From an uncultured Candidatus Saccharibacteria bacterium (lineage in GTDB: Bacteria > Patescibacteriota > Minisyncoccia > Minisyncoccales > JANBVM01): a stretch of DNA of 64,000 nucleotides. The position numbers and the translations under genes are program-made. Under the pieces are notes generated by a model, which worked only from the letters and a program-made list of their open reading frames with translations, did not search any database and was not told the origin of the DNA. How positions within the stretch are numbered: position 1 is the stretch's first letter; every line of letters starts with the position of its first letter. The stretch is from contig CAYVDD010000001.1 in NCBI GenBank assembly GCA_964450805.1, positions 254,365-318,364 on the forward strand, written 5' to 3'. Below, one piece after another: positions 2,169 to 58,732 of the stretch.

Positions 2169-2421
2169 AGTCTTATTCTATCAAAAAACCGCTTATAGAG
2201 CGATTTTGCATTTATTCATTTTTTGATCTTGTTGTTTTAACTATATTAAAACTAAAAAAATTTTTAGCATCACCACTAAGTAAGTTATTCTTTTGAGTCC
2301 TACAATTCTCCCCCTGTTGGACGCGTTCAGAACCATTGACTGGGTAGAAATAAAAGAAAATCTAATAAAATTAGATTTAGTAAAAATTTAAATAAAAAAA
2401 CCTCATTTCTTCGAACCTGTT

Positions 2422-3054
2422 TTAATCTAAAAATCTAAAAGTAGAAAGTATTTGGTTGAATATCTCTAAATCTTTATTGAATTGGCTCGTACTCCCTGAT
2501 ACACCATAAAGCCTGTAAAACTTATTTCCTTTAATAAATTCTATAGAGGCGGGTCCTCCCATCCAAACTTTCAAGTCTAAATTTCCTATTTTTCTTATTG
2601 TTACTTTATTTAGCCTTTCTTGTTTTAATCGCTCTGCAATATCTTCGTTCGAGGAATAATAACCTTGCTTAATCCAATCCTCGATTGATAAAGCGTTTCT
2701 AGAGTTTTCAAGAATAAGTATTTTAAAAGAACTTCCATTTTCTGTAAGAGGACCTCCACCAGCAACTATTACTTTTTCTTTAATATTTTCGATAAGAATA
2801 TTTTCCAAACAACCCTCAAATCCACATTCCAACCTATATTCTTCTTTTAAAAACCAATCCGAAGGATACTTTATTTCGTATTTAACCCTCTCGTTTCTAT
2901 AAGTTTTCCAATCAGCTGTTCCGTCTTTTATTTTTTCTAAAACATCCTGTATCTCTGGATATTGCCAAATAAATCCTCCAACTAAAACACTTAAAGCTAA
3001 AATAATTCCTATTGCTAATAGAGTAGATATTCCTTTATTAATAAAGTTTTTCAT
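2422..3054 (-). CDS. Hypothetical membrane-anchored or secreted protein
   Basis: N-terminal signal-anchor helix and no recognisable catalytic motif. Confidence 0.35.
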   Translation of the reverse strand: MKNFINKGISTLLAIGIILALSVLVGGFIWQYPEIQDVLEKIKDGTADWKTYRNERVKYEIKYPSDWFLKEEYRLECGFEGCLENILIENIKEKVIVAGGGPLTENGSSFKILILENSRNALSIEDWIKQGYYSSNEDIAERLKQERLNKVTIRKIGNLDLKVWMGGPASIEFIKGNKFYRLYGVSGSTSQFNKDLEIFNQILSTFRFLD

Positions 3055-3315
3055 ATATTTTATTCTATCAAAAAATACCCATTAAATCACCTCTTAAAAT
3101 TTACCATTTTATCTATTTGTTTGGCAAATTCTTCGATACTTCAAAGAATAAATTGTCAAAAAGAATTCGTGTAATGGCACGAGAGTGAAAAAATAATGTA
3201 CCGAGAAAATATTTATAAAATTTTAAAAAAACGTTTTTCTTACTATAATATTCAAGCCAGCTAAACCTAAAACTGGGAATTTTCATATTAAATTTCTTTA
3301 AAAAATTCCTCGTTA

Positions 3316-6916: not shown

Positions 6917-8392
6917 ATGTTAACAAAAAGACAAAAACAAATTCTTGATTACATTCAAAAATTTATAGAAAAAAAGGGCTATTCCCCATCTTTTGAAAAA
7001 GTGGCGAAGCACTTTAAATTAGTCAAATCTACTATTCATCAACATATTGAAACTTTAAAAAGTAAGGGGTACTTAAAAAATCAACCAAGAATTATAGAGA
7101 TATCTAAAAATAAAAAATTTCAAGAATTGGTACAGATTCCAATATTAGGAACTATCGCTGCTGGACAACCAATAGAAATAATAAGAGACAAAGAATTTAT
7201 TAAAGTGGCTAAATCTAGACTATCTTCGTCTGGTGAACATTATGCTCTTAAAGTTCAAGGAGATAGCATGATAGATGAAGGAATTCACGATTCTGATGTT
7301 GTAATAATTAAAAAACAATCTTATGCAGAAGATGGAGAAACAATAGTTGCTTTGACTAACTATGACGAAGTTACTTTAAAAAAAATCTATAAAGAAAAAG
7401 ATGGATTTCGTTTACAACCAGCTAACCCAAAGCTAAAACCAATTTTTGTAAAAGAATTAATTATTCAAGGCAAAGTTATTAGCGTAATTAAAAATTACAA
7501 AGAACTAAAAGAAAAAATAAAGGCTAAATTAAAAGTTAAAATTAGAACAAGCAAAACGCCAAAAAAAAATATAAAAAAACATCTAAATAAAGTATTTCTT
7601 GGAGATATTATGAATCTTCTAAAAGAGCTACCCAATGAAAGTGTAGATATGGTTTTTGGAGATCCTGATTATAATGTTGGTATAAAATACAGAGATAAAA
7701 GTTATACAAGAAACTTCAACGAATATATTGAATGGTATATTGATTTAATAAAAGAATCTATGAGAGTTTTAAGAAAAGATGGAAATTTATTCACAATGAA
7801 TTATCCCAAACAAAATGCACATTTAAGAGTGAAATATTTAGACAACACATATCCTTTAATTCATGAATATGTATGGACTTACAATACAAATGTAGGTCAT
7901 TCTTCAAAACGTTTCACTACTGGACATAGAAACATCTTACATGTCAGAAAAAGTAAAAATAATAAATTTTACAAAAATAATGTAGCATTACCTTATAAGA
8001 ATCCGACGGATAGAAGAATTTTAAAAAATTTAAGAAATGGATCAAAGGGTAGAATGCCTTATTCTTGGTTCTATTTCAATCTTGTTAAAAATGTTAGTAA
8101 AGAAAAAACTTGTCATGCTTGTCAAATACCTCAAAAACTTACGGAAATGTTAATAAAATCTTGCACAATGCCAAACGACATGGTTTTAATTCTTTTTGGT
8201 GGAAGTGGAGCTGAATTAGAAGTATGCAAGAGAACAAAAAGACAATATATTTCTGCTGAAATAGATGAAAAATATTACGAAATGATTAAAGATAGATTAA
8301 AAAATGGTTGTATTAAAAAAGAATACAAGCTAAAACTTAGAAATCCTATAAAACCTAAGGAAAGCTTGTCGCTTTTTAGTAAAGAGGTATAA
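6917..8392 (+). CDS. Fusion protein: full-length LexA repressor (wHTH plus S24 autopeptidase) fused to a beta-class N6-adenine/N4-cytosine DNA methyltransferase (PF01555-like)
   Basis: LexA part: N-terminal HTH, cleavage-site-like 'IAAGQP', catalytic 'QGDSM' and 'TLKKI' (Ser/Lys dyad). A Lys-rich linker follows. MTase part: 'VDMVFGDPDYN' (motif IV, DPPY-type) precedes 'HACQIPQKL...LILFGGSGA' (motif I FxGxG), which is the beta-class order. Confidence 0.75.
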   Translation: MLTKRQKQILDYIQKFIEKKGYSPSFEKVAKHFKLVKSTIHQHIETLKSKGYLKNQPRIIEISKNKKFQELVQIPILGTIAAGQPIEIIRDKEFIKVAKSRLSSSGEHYALKVQGDSMIDEGIHDSDVVIIKKQSYAEDGETIVALTNYDEVTLKKIYKEKDGFRLQPANPKLKPIFVKELIIQGKVISVIKNYKELKEKIKAKLKVKIRTSKTPKKNIKKHLNKVFLGDIMNLLKELPNESVDMVFGDPDYNVGIKYRDKSYTRNFNEYIEWYIDLIKESMRVLRKDGNLFTMNYPKQNAHLRVKYLDNTYPLIHEYVWTYNTNVGHSSKRFTTGHRNILHVRKSKNNKFYKNNVALPYKNPTDRRILKNLRNGSKGRMPYSWFYFNLVKNVSKEKTCHACQIPQKLTEMLIKSCTMPNDMVLILFGGSGAELEVCKRTKRQYISAEIDEKYYEMIKDRLKNGCIKKEYKLKLRNPIKPKESLSLFSKEV

Positions 8393-25152: not shown

Positions 25153-25224
25153 TGGGCGCGGAAGGAGTCGAACCTTCCACCTCTTTTTTATCAGAAAAGC
25201 GTTCTACCGCTGAACTACGCGCCC
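25153..25224 (-). tRNA. tRNA-Ile (anticodon GAT)
   Basis: Reverse complement GGGCGCGTAGTTCAGCGGTAGAACGCTTTTCTGATAAAAAAGAGGTGGAAGGTTCGACTCCTTCCGCGCCCA. Anticodon loop CTGATAA. Confidence 0.85.
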
Positions 25225-25790
25225 AAAACCTCTAAAACAAATAACTTTTTTTTAACAGGATCAAATTTATAAGAAACATCTTTATCGAAAATCAAATTCA
25301 GGTTTAAAGTCTTAAAAATCTCCAGCCATTCTTCTTCTGTTTTAAAAACAGTCTTATTCTTATTACCAAAAAGCTTATCAAATGAAAAGCTGTGAATCTG
25401 GCAAGCTAATTTTGATAAAAATCCTTCAGGTAAATCTTCATAAATAAAGATTTTACCTCTTGAAACCCTTATTACTTCCTTTAAAAGGGCAACAAAGTCT
25501 TTGCTGTGATGCAATGTATAAGCTATTAAAATATTGTCAAAACTATTTTCAGGGAAAGGAAGCTTTTTTCCGTTAATCAAGCTGAATGCTATGGGAAATA
25601 TTCTTCGGTCAACAACATCCACACCAATAACCTCTGTTTCAAAAAAATTCTGAAAAGTATTAGCTATTATTGCAGAACCGCAACCAATATCAAGAATTCT
25701 GGATTTTTTAATAATAAATTGTTCACAGTCCAAACACATTTTATGGGCTACCTGTTCGTAAATTTTTTTAAAAACACGATAAAAGTTCAT
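25215..25790 (-). CDS. Class I SAM-dependent methyltransferase; its 3' end overlaps the tRNA-Ile 5' end
   Basis: Motif I 'ILDIGCGSA', an acidic residue after beta-2 ('IGVDVVD') and motif-IV-like 'LIAYTLHH'. The stop codon lies 7 nt inside the tRNA-Ile acceptor stem. Confidence 0.6.
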   Translation of the reverse strand: MNFYRVFKKIYEQVAHKMCLDCEQFIIKKSRILDIGCGSAIIANTFQNFFETEVIGVDVVDRRIFPIAFSLINGKKLPFPENSFDNILIAYTLHHSKDFVALLKEVIRVSRGKIFIYEDLPEGFLSKLACQIHSFSFDKLFGNKNKTVFKTEEEWLEIFKTLNLNLIFDKDVSYKFDPVKKKLFVLEVLGA

Positions 25791-26585: not shown

Positions 26586-26696
26586 TTTAGTTTCTTAGAG
26601 TTATCCCGACTAGTCGATCTTTTAGAAACTTCGACCAACTTCTCAAAAGTTAAAATCCAAATTTCAGATTTCAACTCTTATCAACCAATTTTAAAA

Positions 26697-28232
<1,536 letters not shown>

Positions 28233-28437
28233 TAAAAAATAGTCGGGATAACTCTAAAAAACTAATTATATTAATTATCAGGTCCTTACTATTAAGTTTT
28301 AATGTTCTTTCCTTTAAAGTAAAAAATCAGGAAGAGACATCCTGATCATTTCCGAAATCTTTAATTAATGATTCGCTTATTTACATCTTTTCTTTTTTTT
28401 CTTAGTCATTTCTTTATTTATTAGTCTCTTCAATTTT

Positions 28438-32947: not shown

Positions 32948-33694
32948 ATGGCATCAATAATTATTGAAATTAGAGCAGGAACAGGAGGGAAAGAAGCTGC
33001 GTTATTTGCAGCTGATTTATTTAAAATGTATTCCCGCTATGCTCAAAATCAAGGATGGAAACAAAAAACTCTTGATTCTCAACCTACAGAATTAAACGGT
33101 ATTAAGCAGGTTGTTTTTGAGCTGAAAAACAGCAATGTCTTTGAAAAAATGAAATACGAAGGTGGAGTTCACAGAGTACAGAGAATTCCTAAAACTGAAA
33201 AATCAGGAAGAATACATACTTCAACAGCTACAGTAGCAGTGTTTCCAAAACCAGAAAAAAATGAAATCAATATAAGGGCAGATGAACTGAAAATTGATCA
33301 TTATAGAGCTTCTGGTCCAGGTGGTCAGTATGTTAATAAACGCGAAACAGCAGTGAGAATTACTCACCTGCCAACTGGTATTGTTGTTACTTCTCAAACA
33401 GCAAGAGGACAGCTTCAAAACAAAGAAAATGCTTTAGCAATTCTTCAGGCCAAGATTTTAGAACATGAAGAATTAAAAAACATTGAAAAACTGACAAAAG
33501 AAAGAAGAGCCCAAATAAAATGGGCAAGAAGAGTTGATAAAATAAGAACATATAACTTTCCACAGGACAGAATTACTGATCACAGGATAAAAAAAAGCTG
33601 GCACAAACTTGACAGCATTATGGATGGAAAACTGGAATCCATAATTAAAGCTATGAAAAAATCAGAATCTAAAATTATTTCTCAAGCTCCTTAA
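32948..33694 (+). CDS. prfA: Peptide chain release factor 1 lacking N-terminal domain 1
   Basis: 'RVQRIPKTEKSGRIHTS' (PxT codon-recognition motif) and 'GPGGQYVNK' (GGQ). It starts at the position equivalent to E. coli RF1 residue ~110. In-frame stops upstream (L31 stop) exclude an extension. Confidence 0.75.
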   Translation: MASIIIEIRAGTGGKEAALFAADLFKMYSRYAQNQGWKQKTLDSQPTELNGIKQVVFELKNSNVFEKMKYEGGVHRVQRIPKTEKSGRIHTSTATVAVFPKPEKNEINIRADELKIDHYRASGPGGQYVNKRETAVRITHLPTGIVVTSQTARGQLQNKENALAILQAKILEHEELKNIEKLTKERRAQIKWARRVDKIRTYNFPQDRITDHRIKKSWHKLDSIMDGKLESIIKAMKKSESKIISQAP

Positions 33695-41831: not shown

Positions 41832-41844
41832 ATATTCTATTCTA

Positions 41845-41869
41845 CCAAAAAATCGCCTTGTGGGCGATT
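41845..41869 (-). terminator. Rho-independent terminator after gap
   Basis: Hairpin aatcgcc-ttgtg-ggcgatt, followed on the minus strand by U6. Confidence 0.45.
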
Positions 41870-56975: not shown

Positions 56976-57677
56976 TTAAAGTATGAATCTTCCTCTTTTT
57001 TCATCCCTTATAATTCTTCCTTTTTCCAAAGTAATTACTCTTTTTCCCAATTTATTAATGACTTCCCTGTCATGAGTAGACAAAACAACAGTAGTTCCCA
57101 TTTTATTTATTTTAAGCAAAAGTTCTATTATGTCTAAAGTATGATATGGGTCTAAATTTCCAGTTGGTTCATCCGCTAAAATAACTCCAGGCCTGTGAAT
57201 TAAGGCTCTGGCAATAGCTGCTCTCTGCCGTTCTCCTCCAGAAAGCTGGGCTGGAAAATTATTGGCCCTGTCTTTTAGGCCAACTATTTCTAAAATTATT
57301 GGTACAGCTTTTTTAATCTCTTTATCTGAAGCTCCAATCACTTCTAAAATATAGGATATATTTTCGTAAGTTGTTTTTGAAGGAAGCAATTTGTAATCCT
57401 GAAAAACTGCTCCTATTTTTCTTCTTAAATACGGTAAATCTTCTGGTTCTATTTTATGAACATCCTGCTCTTTAAAAAAAACTCTGCCTTTTGTCGGCTT
57501 TTCTTCAGCTAAAAGAAGTTTTAAAAGAGTTGTTTTGCCAGCCCCTGATTTTCCTACAATTGAAACAAAATCCTTTGGTTTTATTTCAAAAGAAACATCT
57601 GCCAAAGCTATTGTTGGTTTAAAGCCAGAAACATGACAAGGATAGATTTTTGTAATATTTTCAAACTTAATCATCAC
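56976..57677 (-). CDS. ftsE: Cell division ABC ATPase FtsE
   Basis: Walker A 'GKSGAGKTT', signature 'LSGGERQR' and Walker B 'ILADEPTGNLD'. Confidence 0.8.
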   Translation of the reverse strand: MMIKFENITKIYPCHVSGFKPTIALADVSFEIKPKDFVSIVGKSGAGKTTLLKLLLAEEKPTKGRVFFKEQDVHKIEPEDLPYLRRKIGAVFQDYKLLPSKTTYENISYILEVIGASDKEIKKAVPIILEIVGLKDRANNFPAQLSGGERQRAAIARALIHRPGVILADEPTGNLDPYHTLDIIELLLKINKMGTTVVLSTHDREVINKLGKRVITLEKGRIIRDEKRGRFIL

Positions 57678-58732
57678 CTTTTAAACGAATTTCTGCTTCA
57701 ATGAATTCATCTAAATCACCATTTAATACTTGTTCAATTTTAGCAGTTTCCTTTTCAGTTCTTAAATCCTTTACTAATTTATATGGATGAAGAACATAGC
57801 TTCTGATCTGATTTCCCCAGCTCGCAGATATCTTTTCTCCTTTAATTTTTGAAACCTTTTGTTTCTGGTTTTCTTTATAAAACTTGTGAAGTCGGGAATA
57901 AAGAAGCTCAGTTGCCTTTTTTTTATTACTAGCCTGAGATCTTTCTGATTGGCAGGCAGCAATAATTTTAGTTGGCAGGTGTGTAATTCTAACTGCTGTT
58001 TCACGTTTATTAACATACTGACCGCCTGGACCAGAAGCTCTGAAAACTTCAATTTTTAAATCTTCAGGCTTTACCTGTATATCTTCCAATTCTTCAATCT
58101 TAGGCATCACTTCAACCAAAGCAAAAGAAGTATGTCTTATTCCTTTGGCTGAAAAAGGAGAAATTCTGACCAATCTATGAACTCCACTTTCTTTTTTTAA
58201 AAAACCATAAGAAAACTTTCCCTTGATTTCTAAAGTAACTGATTTAGTTCCAATTCTTCCTTCAGGACCTCCAGCTTCAGCAAAAGATTGATTCAGGATT
58301 TTAGTTTTAAATTTTTTATTCTCGCAATATCTTTCATACATTCTAAGCAGCATTGTTGCCCAATCCTGGGCATCCTGACCTCCAGCTCCAGAATAGATTG
58401 ATAAAATTGCATTTCCTCTATCGTATTTCCCTAAAAAAAGAGTTTGAATTTCTTTTTCTTTTAATCTGCCTTCAATCTCTTTAATATCTTCTTCGTTTTT
58501 TAATTCCTCTATCTCTTTTTTTAACTTATCAAATTCAGCTAATTCTTGCGTTATTTGACTGGTTTTTTGGGTTATTTTTACTGCTTTTTCCTTATCCTGC
58601 CAGAGATTTGGGTCTTGAACCTGTTTCTCTAATTCTTTTAAATTCTTTCTTTTGTTTTCAATGTCAAAGCCAGTCCATCAATTGATGGAGTTTAATTTTT
58701 AAATCTTCAATTCTCTCGTTTAAGTTTTCCAT
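57667..58732 (-). CDS. prfB: Peptide chain release factor 2, made by a programmed +1 frameshift at CUU UGA C
   Basis: Frame-1 ORF 'MENLNERIEDLKIKLHQLMDWL' ends at TGA within 'CTT TGA C' (plus 58663-58669). The +1 frame continues '...GAGGQDAQDW...MLLRMYERY...SPF...GGQ'. Confidence 0.8.

Follow-up and report, generated by a model that had tools for sequence, protein, structure and literature searches.

We find that the 16S rRNA gene in a 64-kb stretch of DNA (hereafter the window) has lost the CCUCC core of the anti-Shine-Dalgarno (anti-SD) sequence, and that the protein-coding genes sharing the window lack Shine-Dalgarno (SD) motifs. In the explanation that we favor, and that we hold to be very probably right as a whole, a Nealsonbacteria-like organism carries a clade-typical tail, GAUCACUACAUUU, in which three substitutions would have destroyed the anti-SD core, and its mRNAs would correspondingly be devoid of an SD motif. 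With the core destroyed and the mRNAs SD-less, 30S subunits would not be positioned by SD:anti-SD pairing; start codons would be marked in other ways, and the replacement tail would itself be under selection.

The 16S rRNA keeps the bacterial register and loses the anti-SD core

A search with Rfam recovered one SSU gene in the window. The features of this gene and of its precursor are as follows.

26695-28235, minus strand: 16S rRNA gene, full length (Rfam RF00177, model positions 1-1533, 1392.9 bits, E = 0)
26708-26731, minus strand: helix 45, CACGGGUAGC-GGAA-GCUGUCCGUG (10 base pairs and a GGAA loop, top posterior probability)
26695-26707, minus strand: single-stranded 3' tail of 13 nt, GAUCACUACAUUU (canonical tail GAUCACCUCCUUA/U; GAUCA retained)
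26702-26698, minus strand: CUACA replacing the anti-SD core CCUCC (E. coli positions 1535-1539; C1536U, U1537A, C1539A)
28240-28265, minus strand: 5' arm of the pre-16S processing stem (RNAduplex, pairs with 26587-26612)
26587-26612, minus strand: 3' arm of the pre-16S processing stem (RNAduplex, -44 kcal/mol; ~83 nt beyond the tail)

The score of the match, set against a gathering score of 50, places the gene among bacterial SSU rRNAs. In a focused alignment of the last 200 nt, its 3' end reads GGAUCACUACAUUU where the bacterial model has GGAUCACCUCCUUU. The segment GUAACAAGG, helix 45 and GAUCAC all keep the model register with posterior probability '*', and helix 45, as given by the cmscan structure line, anchors the tail in this register. 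After GAUCAC, the window 16S continues with UACAUUU and the RF00177 model with CUCCUUu. An initial annotation, made from the bare sequence, had read CUACA in place of CCUCC and had proposed an alignment to an Rfam SSU model as a check on the 3' terminus; the base-for-base alignment to RF00177 bears out both the register and the missing CCUCC, and adds that the gene lies on the minus strand. The 1470-nt spacer downstream of the 16S gene contains no CCTCC. The gene is an anti-SD-less 16S in the sense of Amin et al. (2018) and Nikolaeva et al. (2020), namely one with CCUCCU missing from the 13-nt tail after helix 45. Sequence conservation ends right after the tail, from which we infer that the mature 3' end lies at about the canonical position.

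Two candidate partners of the tail within the rRNA precursor were rejected. The processing stem lies ~83 nt farther out, which leaves the tail outside it, and the best duplex between the tail and the interior of the 16S (-8.8 kcal/mol) equals the mean obtained with shuffled tails. Elsewhere in the gene, near 27790 (minus strand), the window 16S has an expansion of 31 nt against 6 nt in the model, around model position 458. Several relatives carry 16S insertions far larger than this one, which exceeded our 1560-nt extraction window.

Genes in the window lack Shine-Dalgarno motifs

We analyzed 55 Pfam-annotated ORFs of at least 100 aa, drawn from the 64 kb of the window out of a genome of ~636 kb. 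Start codons were set by a simple first-ATG rule, and many are anchored by Pfam domain boundaries: where the first domain begins within the first few residues, the start codon is pinned, as for serS, gap, fba, trxB, eno, iscS, nifU, mnmA, lepA, rnhA, the lexA-methyltransferase (lexA-MTase) fusion and others. Positions -20 to -1 were paired with ACCUCCUUA, and SD-like pairing was scored at a threshold of <= -3.45 kcal/mol. This threshold was reached by 11% of the 55 starts, against 8-9% of shuffled sequences and 29% of the regions upstream of internal ATGs. None of the 55 upstream regions in the window contains GGAGG, AGGAG or GGAG, and no G peak precedes the starts, with G at or below 18% throughout -20 to -1. 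Among 28 genes examined individually, which include the lexA-MTase fusion, rpsB, rpmE, serS, lysS, eno, trxB, ftsZ, gap, iscS and prfB, mnmA alone reached the threshold. Measured against these controls, the 55 window genes behave as those of a non-SD-using organism.

As a positive control we used Staphylococcus phage K (50 kb, ~30% GC), whose host uses SD motifs, with the same ORF caller. Here 85% of starts reached the threshold (shuffles, 47%; internal ATGs, 24%), and a clear G peak was present at about -13 to -7, with G at 35-57% from -13 to -8. Since the phage is equally AT-rich, the absence of SD motifs in the window is real and not an effect of base composition. Across 22 related loci that share the tail of the window 16S, 23% of 105 ORFs reached the threshold, compared with 20% of shuffles.

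The initial annotation had described the listed genes, from the lexA-MTase fusion to prfB, as preceded by A/T-rich stretches free of SD motifs, had proposed a test of pairing energies upstream of coding sequences, and had concluded that initiation is SD-independent across the genome. The description holds for those genes and for the window at large, where the pairing test finds no enrichment. The conclusion stands for the window and for the 105 ORFs of the 22 related loci, while its genome-wide form is an extrapolation from 64 kb of ~636 kb. [quoted passage not shown]

We also considered a control from within the clade, comprising 108 metagenome contigs (L044-L163; 44% GC) that have the same GGCA-type helix 45 and a canonical CCUCC tail, with 16S sequences ~70-73% identical to that of the window. 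Their 430 ORFs display a weak SD enrichment (24% against 19% in shuffles) without a G peak, and start assignment is less reliable at their GC content. These contigs were too distant, their SD signal too weak and their starts too uncertain to serve, and phage K was therefore used as the control. Their weak signal hints that, in the CPR, SD motifs may already be little used before the anti-SD is lost.

The replacement tail is invariant in a deep Parcubacteria clade

The closest 16S sequence belongs to Candidatus Nealsonbacteria CP179889.1, a closed chromosome of 647,540 bp (96.0% identity over 1542 nt), followed by a Patescibacteria MAG (93.2%). The best matches of RpsB and RF2 are likewise from organisms named Nealsonbacteria or Patescibacteria. 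NCBI places Nealsonbacteria in the Parcubacteria group of the Patescibacteria group, and these matches identify the window organism as a Nealsonbacteria-like Parcubacteria (CPR) member, which puts it within the group in which Tsurumaki et al. (2022) described a subgroup without the anti-SD motif.

A scan of GTDB, with each species represented by a single genome, for GGAUCAC and a non-C base after helix 45 returned 41 loci, nearly all from Patescibacteria. The tail GGAUCACUACAU(U/C) was found in 22 GTDB species representatives and 5 metagenome contigs, i.e., in 27 other assemblies, among them two closed Nealsonbacteria chromosomes. Their labels include Nealsonbacteria, Wildermuthbacteria, Paceibacterota, Minisyncoccales and Ca. 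Paceibacter normanii. By blastn, their 16S sequences are only ~78-84% identical to that of the window; the stems of helix 45 differ in a compensatory manner, and the DNA downstream of the tail is unrelated. When 21 near-full-length 16S sequences were aligned, the 14 nt GGAUCACUACAUUU were invariant and similarity ended directly after them.

This breadth bears on whether the tail might be artefactual or non-functional, through an assembly error or as part of a pseudogene or minor rRNA copy, in an organism whose working 16S carries CCUCC. The window does hold a single locus, and rRNA regions of MAGs are sometimes mis-assembled, but the gene matches the model over its full length, keeps helix 45 intact and is enclosed by a processing stem of -44 kcal/mol, the same tail recurs in 27 independent assemblies, including the two closed chromosomes, and the SD-less genes are consistent with a functional loss; we give this reading practically no credence. 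Outside the window, the genome may hold another 16S gene, one with a canonical tail.

The invariance of the tail across a deep clade argues for purifying selection for a non-SD role rather than for a decaying remnant. We infer that the constraint on CUACAUUU probably comes from 30S assembly, 3'-end maturation or the docking of platform proteins. We would go only tentatively further, and consider it a minority prospect that CUACAUUU is a new functional element that took the place of the SD helix throughout a Parcubacteria clade of order to class rank. A platform protein or assembly factor particular to the lineage might dock on it, or it might serve as a dedicated regulator of a few unsampled mRNAs. 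If this were true, the fixation of the tail would mark a defined switch to leaderless and coupled initiation.

The tail could also be conserved for a specialized target, with CUACAUUU pairing with a single mRNA, or with a few, encoded outside the sampled DNA, through a conserved AAAUGUAG-like element upstream of orthologous genes. Its invariance over ~16-22% 16S divergence would fit such a role, and there is a precedent in F. johnsoniae, where the Bacteroidia anti-SD is reported to serve the sole strong-SD gene, rpsU (PMC9976891, PMC13000453). Neither the ~64-kb window nor ~150 kb from relatives, all from rRNA-gene neighborhoods, offered a candidate, however, and bS21, the target in Flavobacterium, is often missing from Parcubacteria (PMC9297842). 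We consider this reading unlikely.

Other classes of altered tail occur in other Parcubacteria and in Peregrinibacteria: CUUCUUAUC, at five loci of which one is labelled Yanofskybacteria; CUUCC..., at loci including ones labelled Peregrinibacteria and Peribacteria; and CAACAUUU. At loci of these other classes (including L014, L004, L008, L030 and L036), many precursors have, directly after the tail, a complementary segment that would fold back on it, e.g., UUCUUAUCUAGAGAA and CCUCCUUUCUAGGGAG. The UACAUUU tail was also seen in two 16S fragments under unexpected labels, one in a MAG labelled Promethearchaeota archaeon Loki_b32 (L027, NJBH01000039.1; 96% identical to the window over 225 nt) and one in a MAG labelled uncultured Gammaproteobacteria (L022, CAZSLY010000016.1). 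Both contigs are probably mis-binned.

No support for pairing of the variant tail with upstream regions

The initial annotation had further suggested that the U-rich tail pairs with the A-rich leaders. This is not supported: pairing is no better than in shuffled sequences, and no complementary motif was found before genes. Versions of the tail of 9, 10 and 21 nt reached <= -3.45 kcal/mol with 4-5% of the -20 to -1 regions, compared with 6-8% of shuffles, and the relatives gave the same picture. UGUAG is present upstream of 0/55 window genes, and the 10-mer complement AAATGTAGTG occurs, within the DNA sampled, only at the 16S gene. Tail-complementary 6-mers located 3-13 nt before ORF starts revealed no recurrent target in the window and 27 relatives. 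We also rejected a pairing of the tail with the start codon region itself (AAAUG). It would need A at position -1, where 64% of genes have U and 18% have A, so that pairing cannot extend into AAAUG.

These results weigh on the reading in which the variant tail is a new anti-SD that pairs with a non-canonical motif or with A-rich leaders. Several considerations speak for it: such strict conservation calls for some function, the leaders are rich in A and the tail has U's at its end, and conserved variant anti-SDs are known in Alteromonas (PMC6107228) and in Flavobacteriales, where many rpsU genes have an extended SD (PMC9976891). Yet the window lacks the complementary upstream motif that characterizes the second rRNA of Alteromonas and the rpsU type of Flavobacteriales. 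The pairing frequencies no better than those of shuffles in window and relatives alike, the missing UGUAG, a complement restricted to the 16S gene, the dominance of U over A at -1 and the lack of a recurrent gene with an upstream match all stand against a new anti-SD, and AAAA:UUUU pairing lacks both the strength and the specificity needed to position a ribosome, a view shared by Amin et al. (PMC6107228). We regard this reading as very improbable.

Start codons may be marked by low structure, leaderless transcripts and coupling

Under the SD-independent initiation that we favor, start codons would be marked in three ways. The first is the start region itself, which is A/U-rich and free of stable structure and has a weak context, with A at -5 to -3 and U at -1. 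The mean minimum free energy from -20 to +20 is -1.46 kcal/mol at starts, compared with -3.53 kcal/mol in internal windows (p = 1.5e-10), which makes the starts much the less structured of the two.

The second would be leaderless transcription of a fraction of operon-first genes, from a -10 box 6-9 nt before the AUG. Defining an operon-first gene as one that follows a gap of at least 40 nt, we found TAnAAT ending 6-9 nt before the ATG in 12/92 such genes, where ~3.3 were expected (Poisson p = 1.7e-4). The signal is split between the window (6/28) and its relatives (6/64), and the phage K control has none (0/35). Three candidate promoters in the window belong to this class.

2175-2180, minus strand: extended -10 box TGA TAGAAT, candidate leaderless promoter, 6 nt before the ATG (2168) of a nucleoside deoxyribosyltransferase gene; hairpin 2190-2202 and T-tract upstream
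3062-3067, minus strand: extended -10 box TGA TAGAAT, candidate leaderless promoter, 7 nt before the ATG of ORF 2422-3054
41839-41844, minus strand: extended -10 box TGG TAGAAT, candidate leaderless promoter, 7 nt before the ATG (41831) of an acetyl-CoA synthetase gene; hairpin 41851-41869 and T-tract upstream

All lie in near-identical modules (2175-2202, 3062-3067 and 41839-41869, minus strand) composed of TTTTT, TGnTAGAAT, 6-7 nt and ATG, and a G+C hairpin adjoins the T-tract at 2175-2202 and 41839-41869. The hairpin and T-tract look like the terminator of the upstream gene fused to the extended -10 box of the next, so that in the favored explanation the -10 box would directly follow a hairpin and T-tract in these three cases. 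Transcripts from the three hairpin-TGnTAGAAT modules should start at or next to the AUG. A sigma-70 scan requires a -35 box and thus missed these extended -10 promoters; the adjacent hairpins were confirmed. Together, this suggests that a minority of operon-first genes (~13-20%) may be leaderless, with the caveat that the -10 consensus is read here against an AT-rich background. Gene finders such as GeneMarkS-2 recognize a leaderless class of gene starts.

The third way would apply to operon-internal genes, whose starts, overlapping the upstream stop codon or following it by 2-4 nt, would be reached through termination-reinitiation or coupling. Of 54 gene junctions, 20 span no more than 10 nt, including 11 overlaps, and five have the form TAAnnATG, three of them being TAATTATG. 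Such tight junctions fit termination-reinitiation or coupling inside operons.

The prfB frameshift site lacks an SD-like stimulator

57667-58732, minus strand: prfB (RF2, SPF motif), with a +1 programmed frameshift site CUU UGA C at 58669-58663; upstream sequence UUGAUGGACUGG, no SD-like stimulator

The shift site CUU UGA C is present in the window prfB without an SD-like stimulator 3 nt upstream. The sequence found there, UUGAUGGACUGG, pairs weakly (-3.3 kcal/mol, against -10.8 for an E. coli context). CP179889.1 combines the same shift-site context with the same 16S tail. According to Naeem et al. (2024, PMC10798248), prfB sites without an SD are common and do function, and their occurrence bears no relation to how far a genome uses SD motifs overall; we therefore do not count prfB as evidence either way.

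Three more distant relatives (L165, L167 and L170) have an SD-like GAGGA four nt before the prfB CUU UGA, in which GAG is a Glu codon; the window, CP179889.1 and L168 have GAUGGA in its place. Against the explanation that we favor, GAGGA in these three relatives could mean that the clade still responds to some residual purine-rich signal. In a search based on RpsB homologues, no contig held both a 16S gene and a GAGGA-type prfB.

The window also encodes RF1, at 32948-33694 (plus strand), after rpmE. The protein has 248 aa with the PKT and GGQ motifs, lacks the N-terminal domain 1, and its Pfam PCRF match begins at profile position 101. Release factor homologues whose alignment starts at about the same point are found at at least 11 related loci, often beside rpmE.

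Relation to known SD-independent systems

The rule that bacteria without CCUCCU lack SD motifs is published (Lim, 2012; Amin et al., 2018, PMC6107228; Nikolaeva et al., 2020, PMC7782861). Amin et al. described 128 taxa without CCUCCU that are generally devoid of SD motifs, with a perfectly complementary variant SD in none of them (PMC6107228), and anti-SD loss is recurrent in tiny genomes (Nikolaeva et al., 2020, PMC7782861). In Parcubacteria, the CCUCCU motif was found in only 48% of 16S genes (Tsurumaki et al., 2022, RNA 28:1041, PMC9297842); in that study, anti-SD loss overlaps with the lineages lacking uL1, SD helices are presumably not formed and bS21 is often missing. The rplK-rplA region, where uL1 would be encoded, lies outside the 64-kb window. 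The window displays the same phenomenon in the same clade. The accessible part of PMC9297842 treats the presence or absence of the motif only; there, the replacement sequence, its conservation and the SD usage of genes are not covered, and the word 'leaderless' occurs 0 times. Our core finding is an already known one: both the pattern and its occurrence in this clade have been described before. The invariant replacement tail in 27 assemblies and the leaderless signature of some operon-first genes appear to be new; they are modest additions that we did not find in the literature searched.

Mycoplasma, Ca. Carsonella, Blattabacterium and Chryseobacterium/Elizabethkingia/Riemerella resemble the window organism in having small or specialized genomes and a mutated tail after an intact helix 45, as well as in showing neither SD enrichment nor a complementary variant SD. 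These are independent losses in unrelated phyla, and some of the tails are variable (Hodgkinia), whereas the clade of the window has one fixed replacement. Bacteroidia, with ribosomes described as 'blind' to the SD (Jha, 2021, PMC7797042; McNutt, 2023, PMC9976891), also have SD-less genes, and their starts are chosen through upstream adenines and low structure, which we liken to the window. Their prfB frameshifting is likewise possible without SD pairing (PMC10798248). Bacteroidia, however, keep CCUCC, hidden in a pocket of bS21, bS18 and bS6, while in the window organism the sequence itself is lost.

Actinobacteria and Deinococcus are rich in leaderless mRNAs, and the mitochondrial 12S rRNA has no anti-SD. 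The absence of an anti-SD sequence is documented for the mammalian mitochondrial SSU rRNA (PMC10582724). What the window has in common with leaderless-rich bacteria and mammalian mitochondria is SD-free initiation and, in some genes, a candidate -10 box 6-9 nt upstream of the AUG; in contrast to these systems, its signature is a sequence-based one and concerns a minority of operon-first genes.

With Parcubacteria, a large and ancient lineage joins the bacteria whose translation does without SD pairing. For annotation, starts in the clade will be misplaced by gene finders that score SD motifs favorably; leaderless and coupled starts should be modelled instead. The conserved replacement tail raises the question of what the last eight nucleotides of the 16S rRNA do once mRNA binding has been lost, and since enrichment cultures containing Nealsonbacteria exist (bioRxiv 10.1101/2022.04.20.488981), this role is open to experiment.

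Other features of the window

Between 19050 and 28235 (minus strand), protein-coding genes interrupt the rRNA genes. The order is 16S, a SAM-methyltransferase gene (25215-25790), tRNA-Ile, tRNA-Ala, CYTH, nucleoside deoxyribosyltransferase, CYTH (plus strand), a mechanosensitive-channel family protein, 23S and 5S. With ~4.5 kb between them, the 16S and 23S genes probably do not form one simple operon. At 6917-8392 (plus strand), a single ORF of 491 aa encodes a complete LexA (DNA-binding domain and S24 peptidase) fused to an N6/N4 DNA methylase domain.
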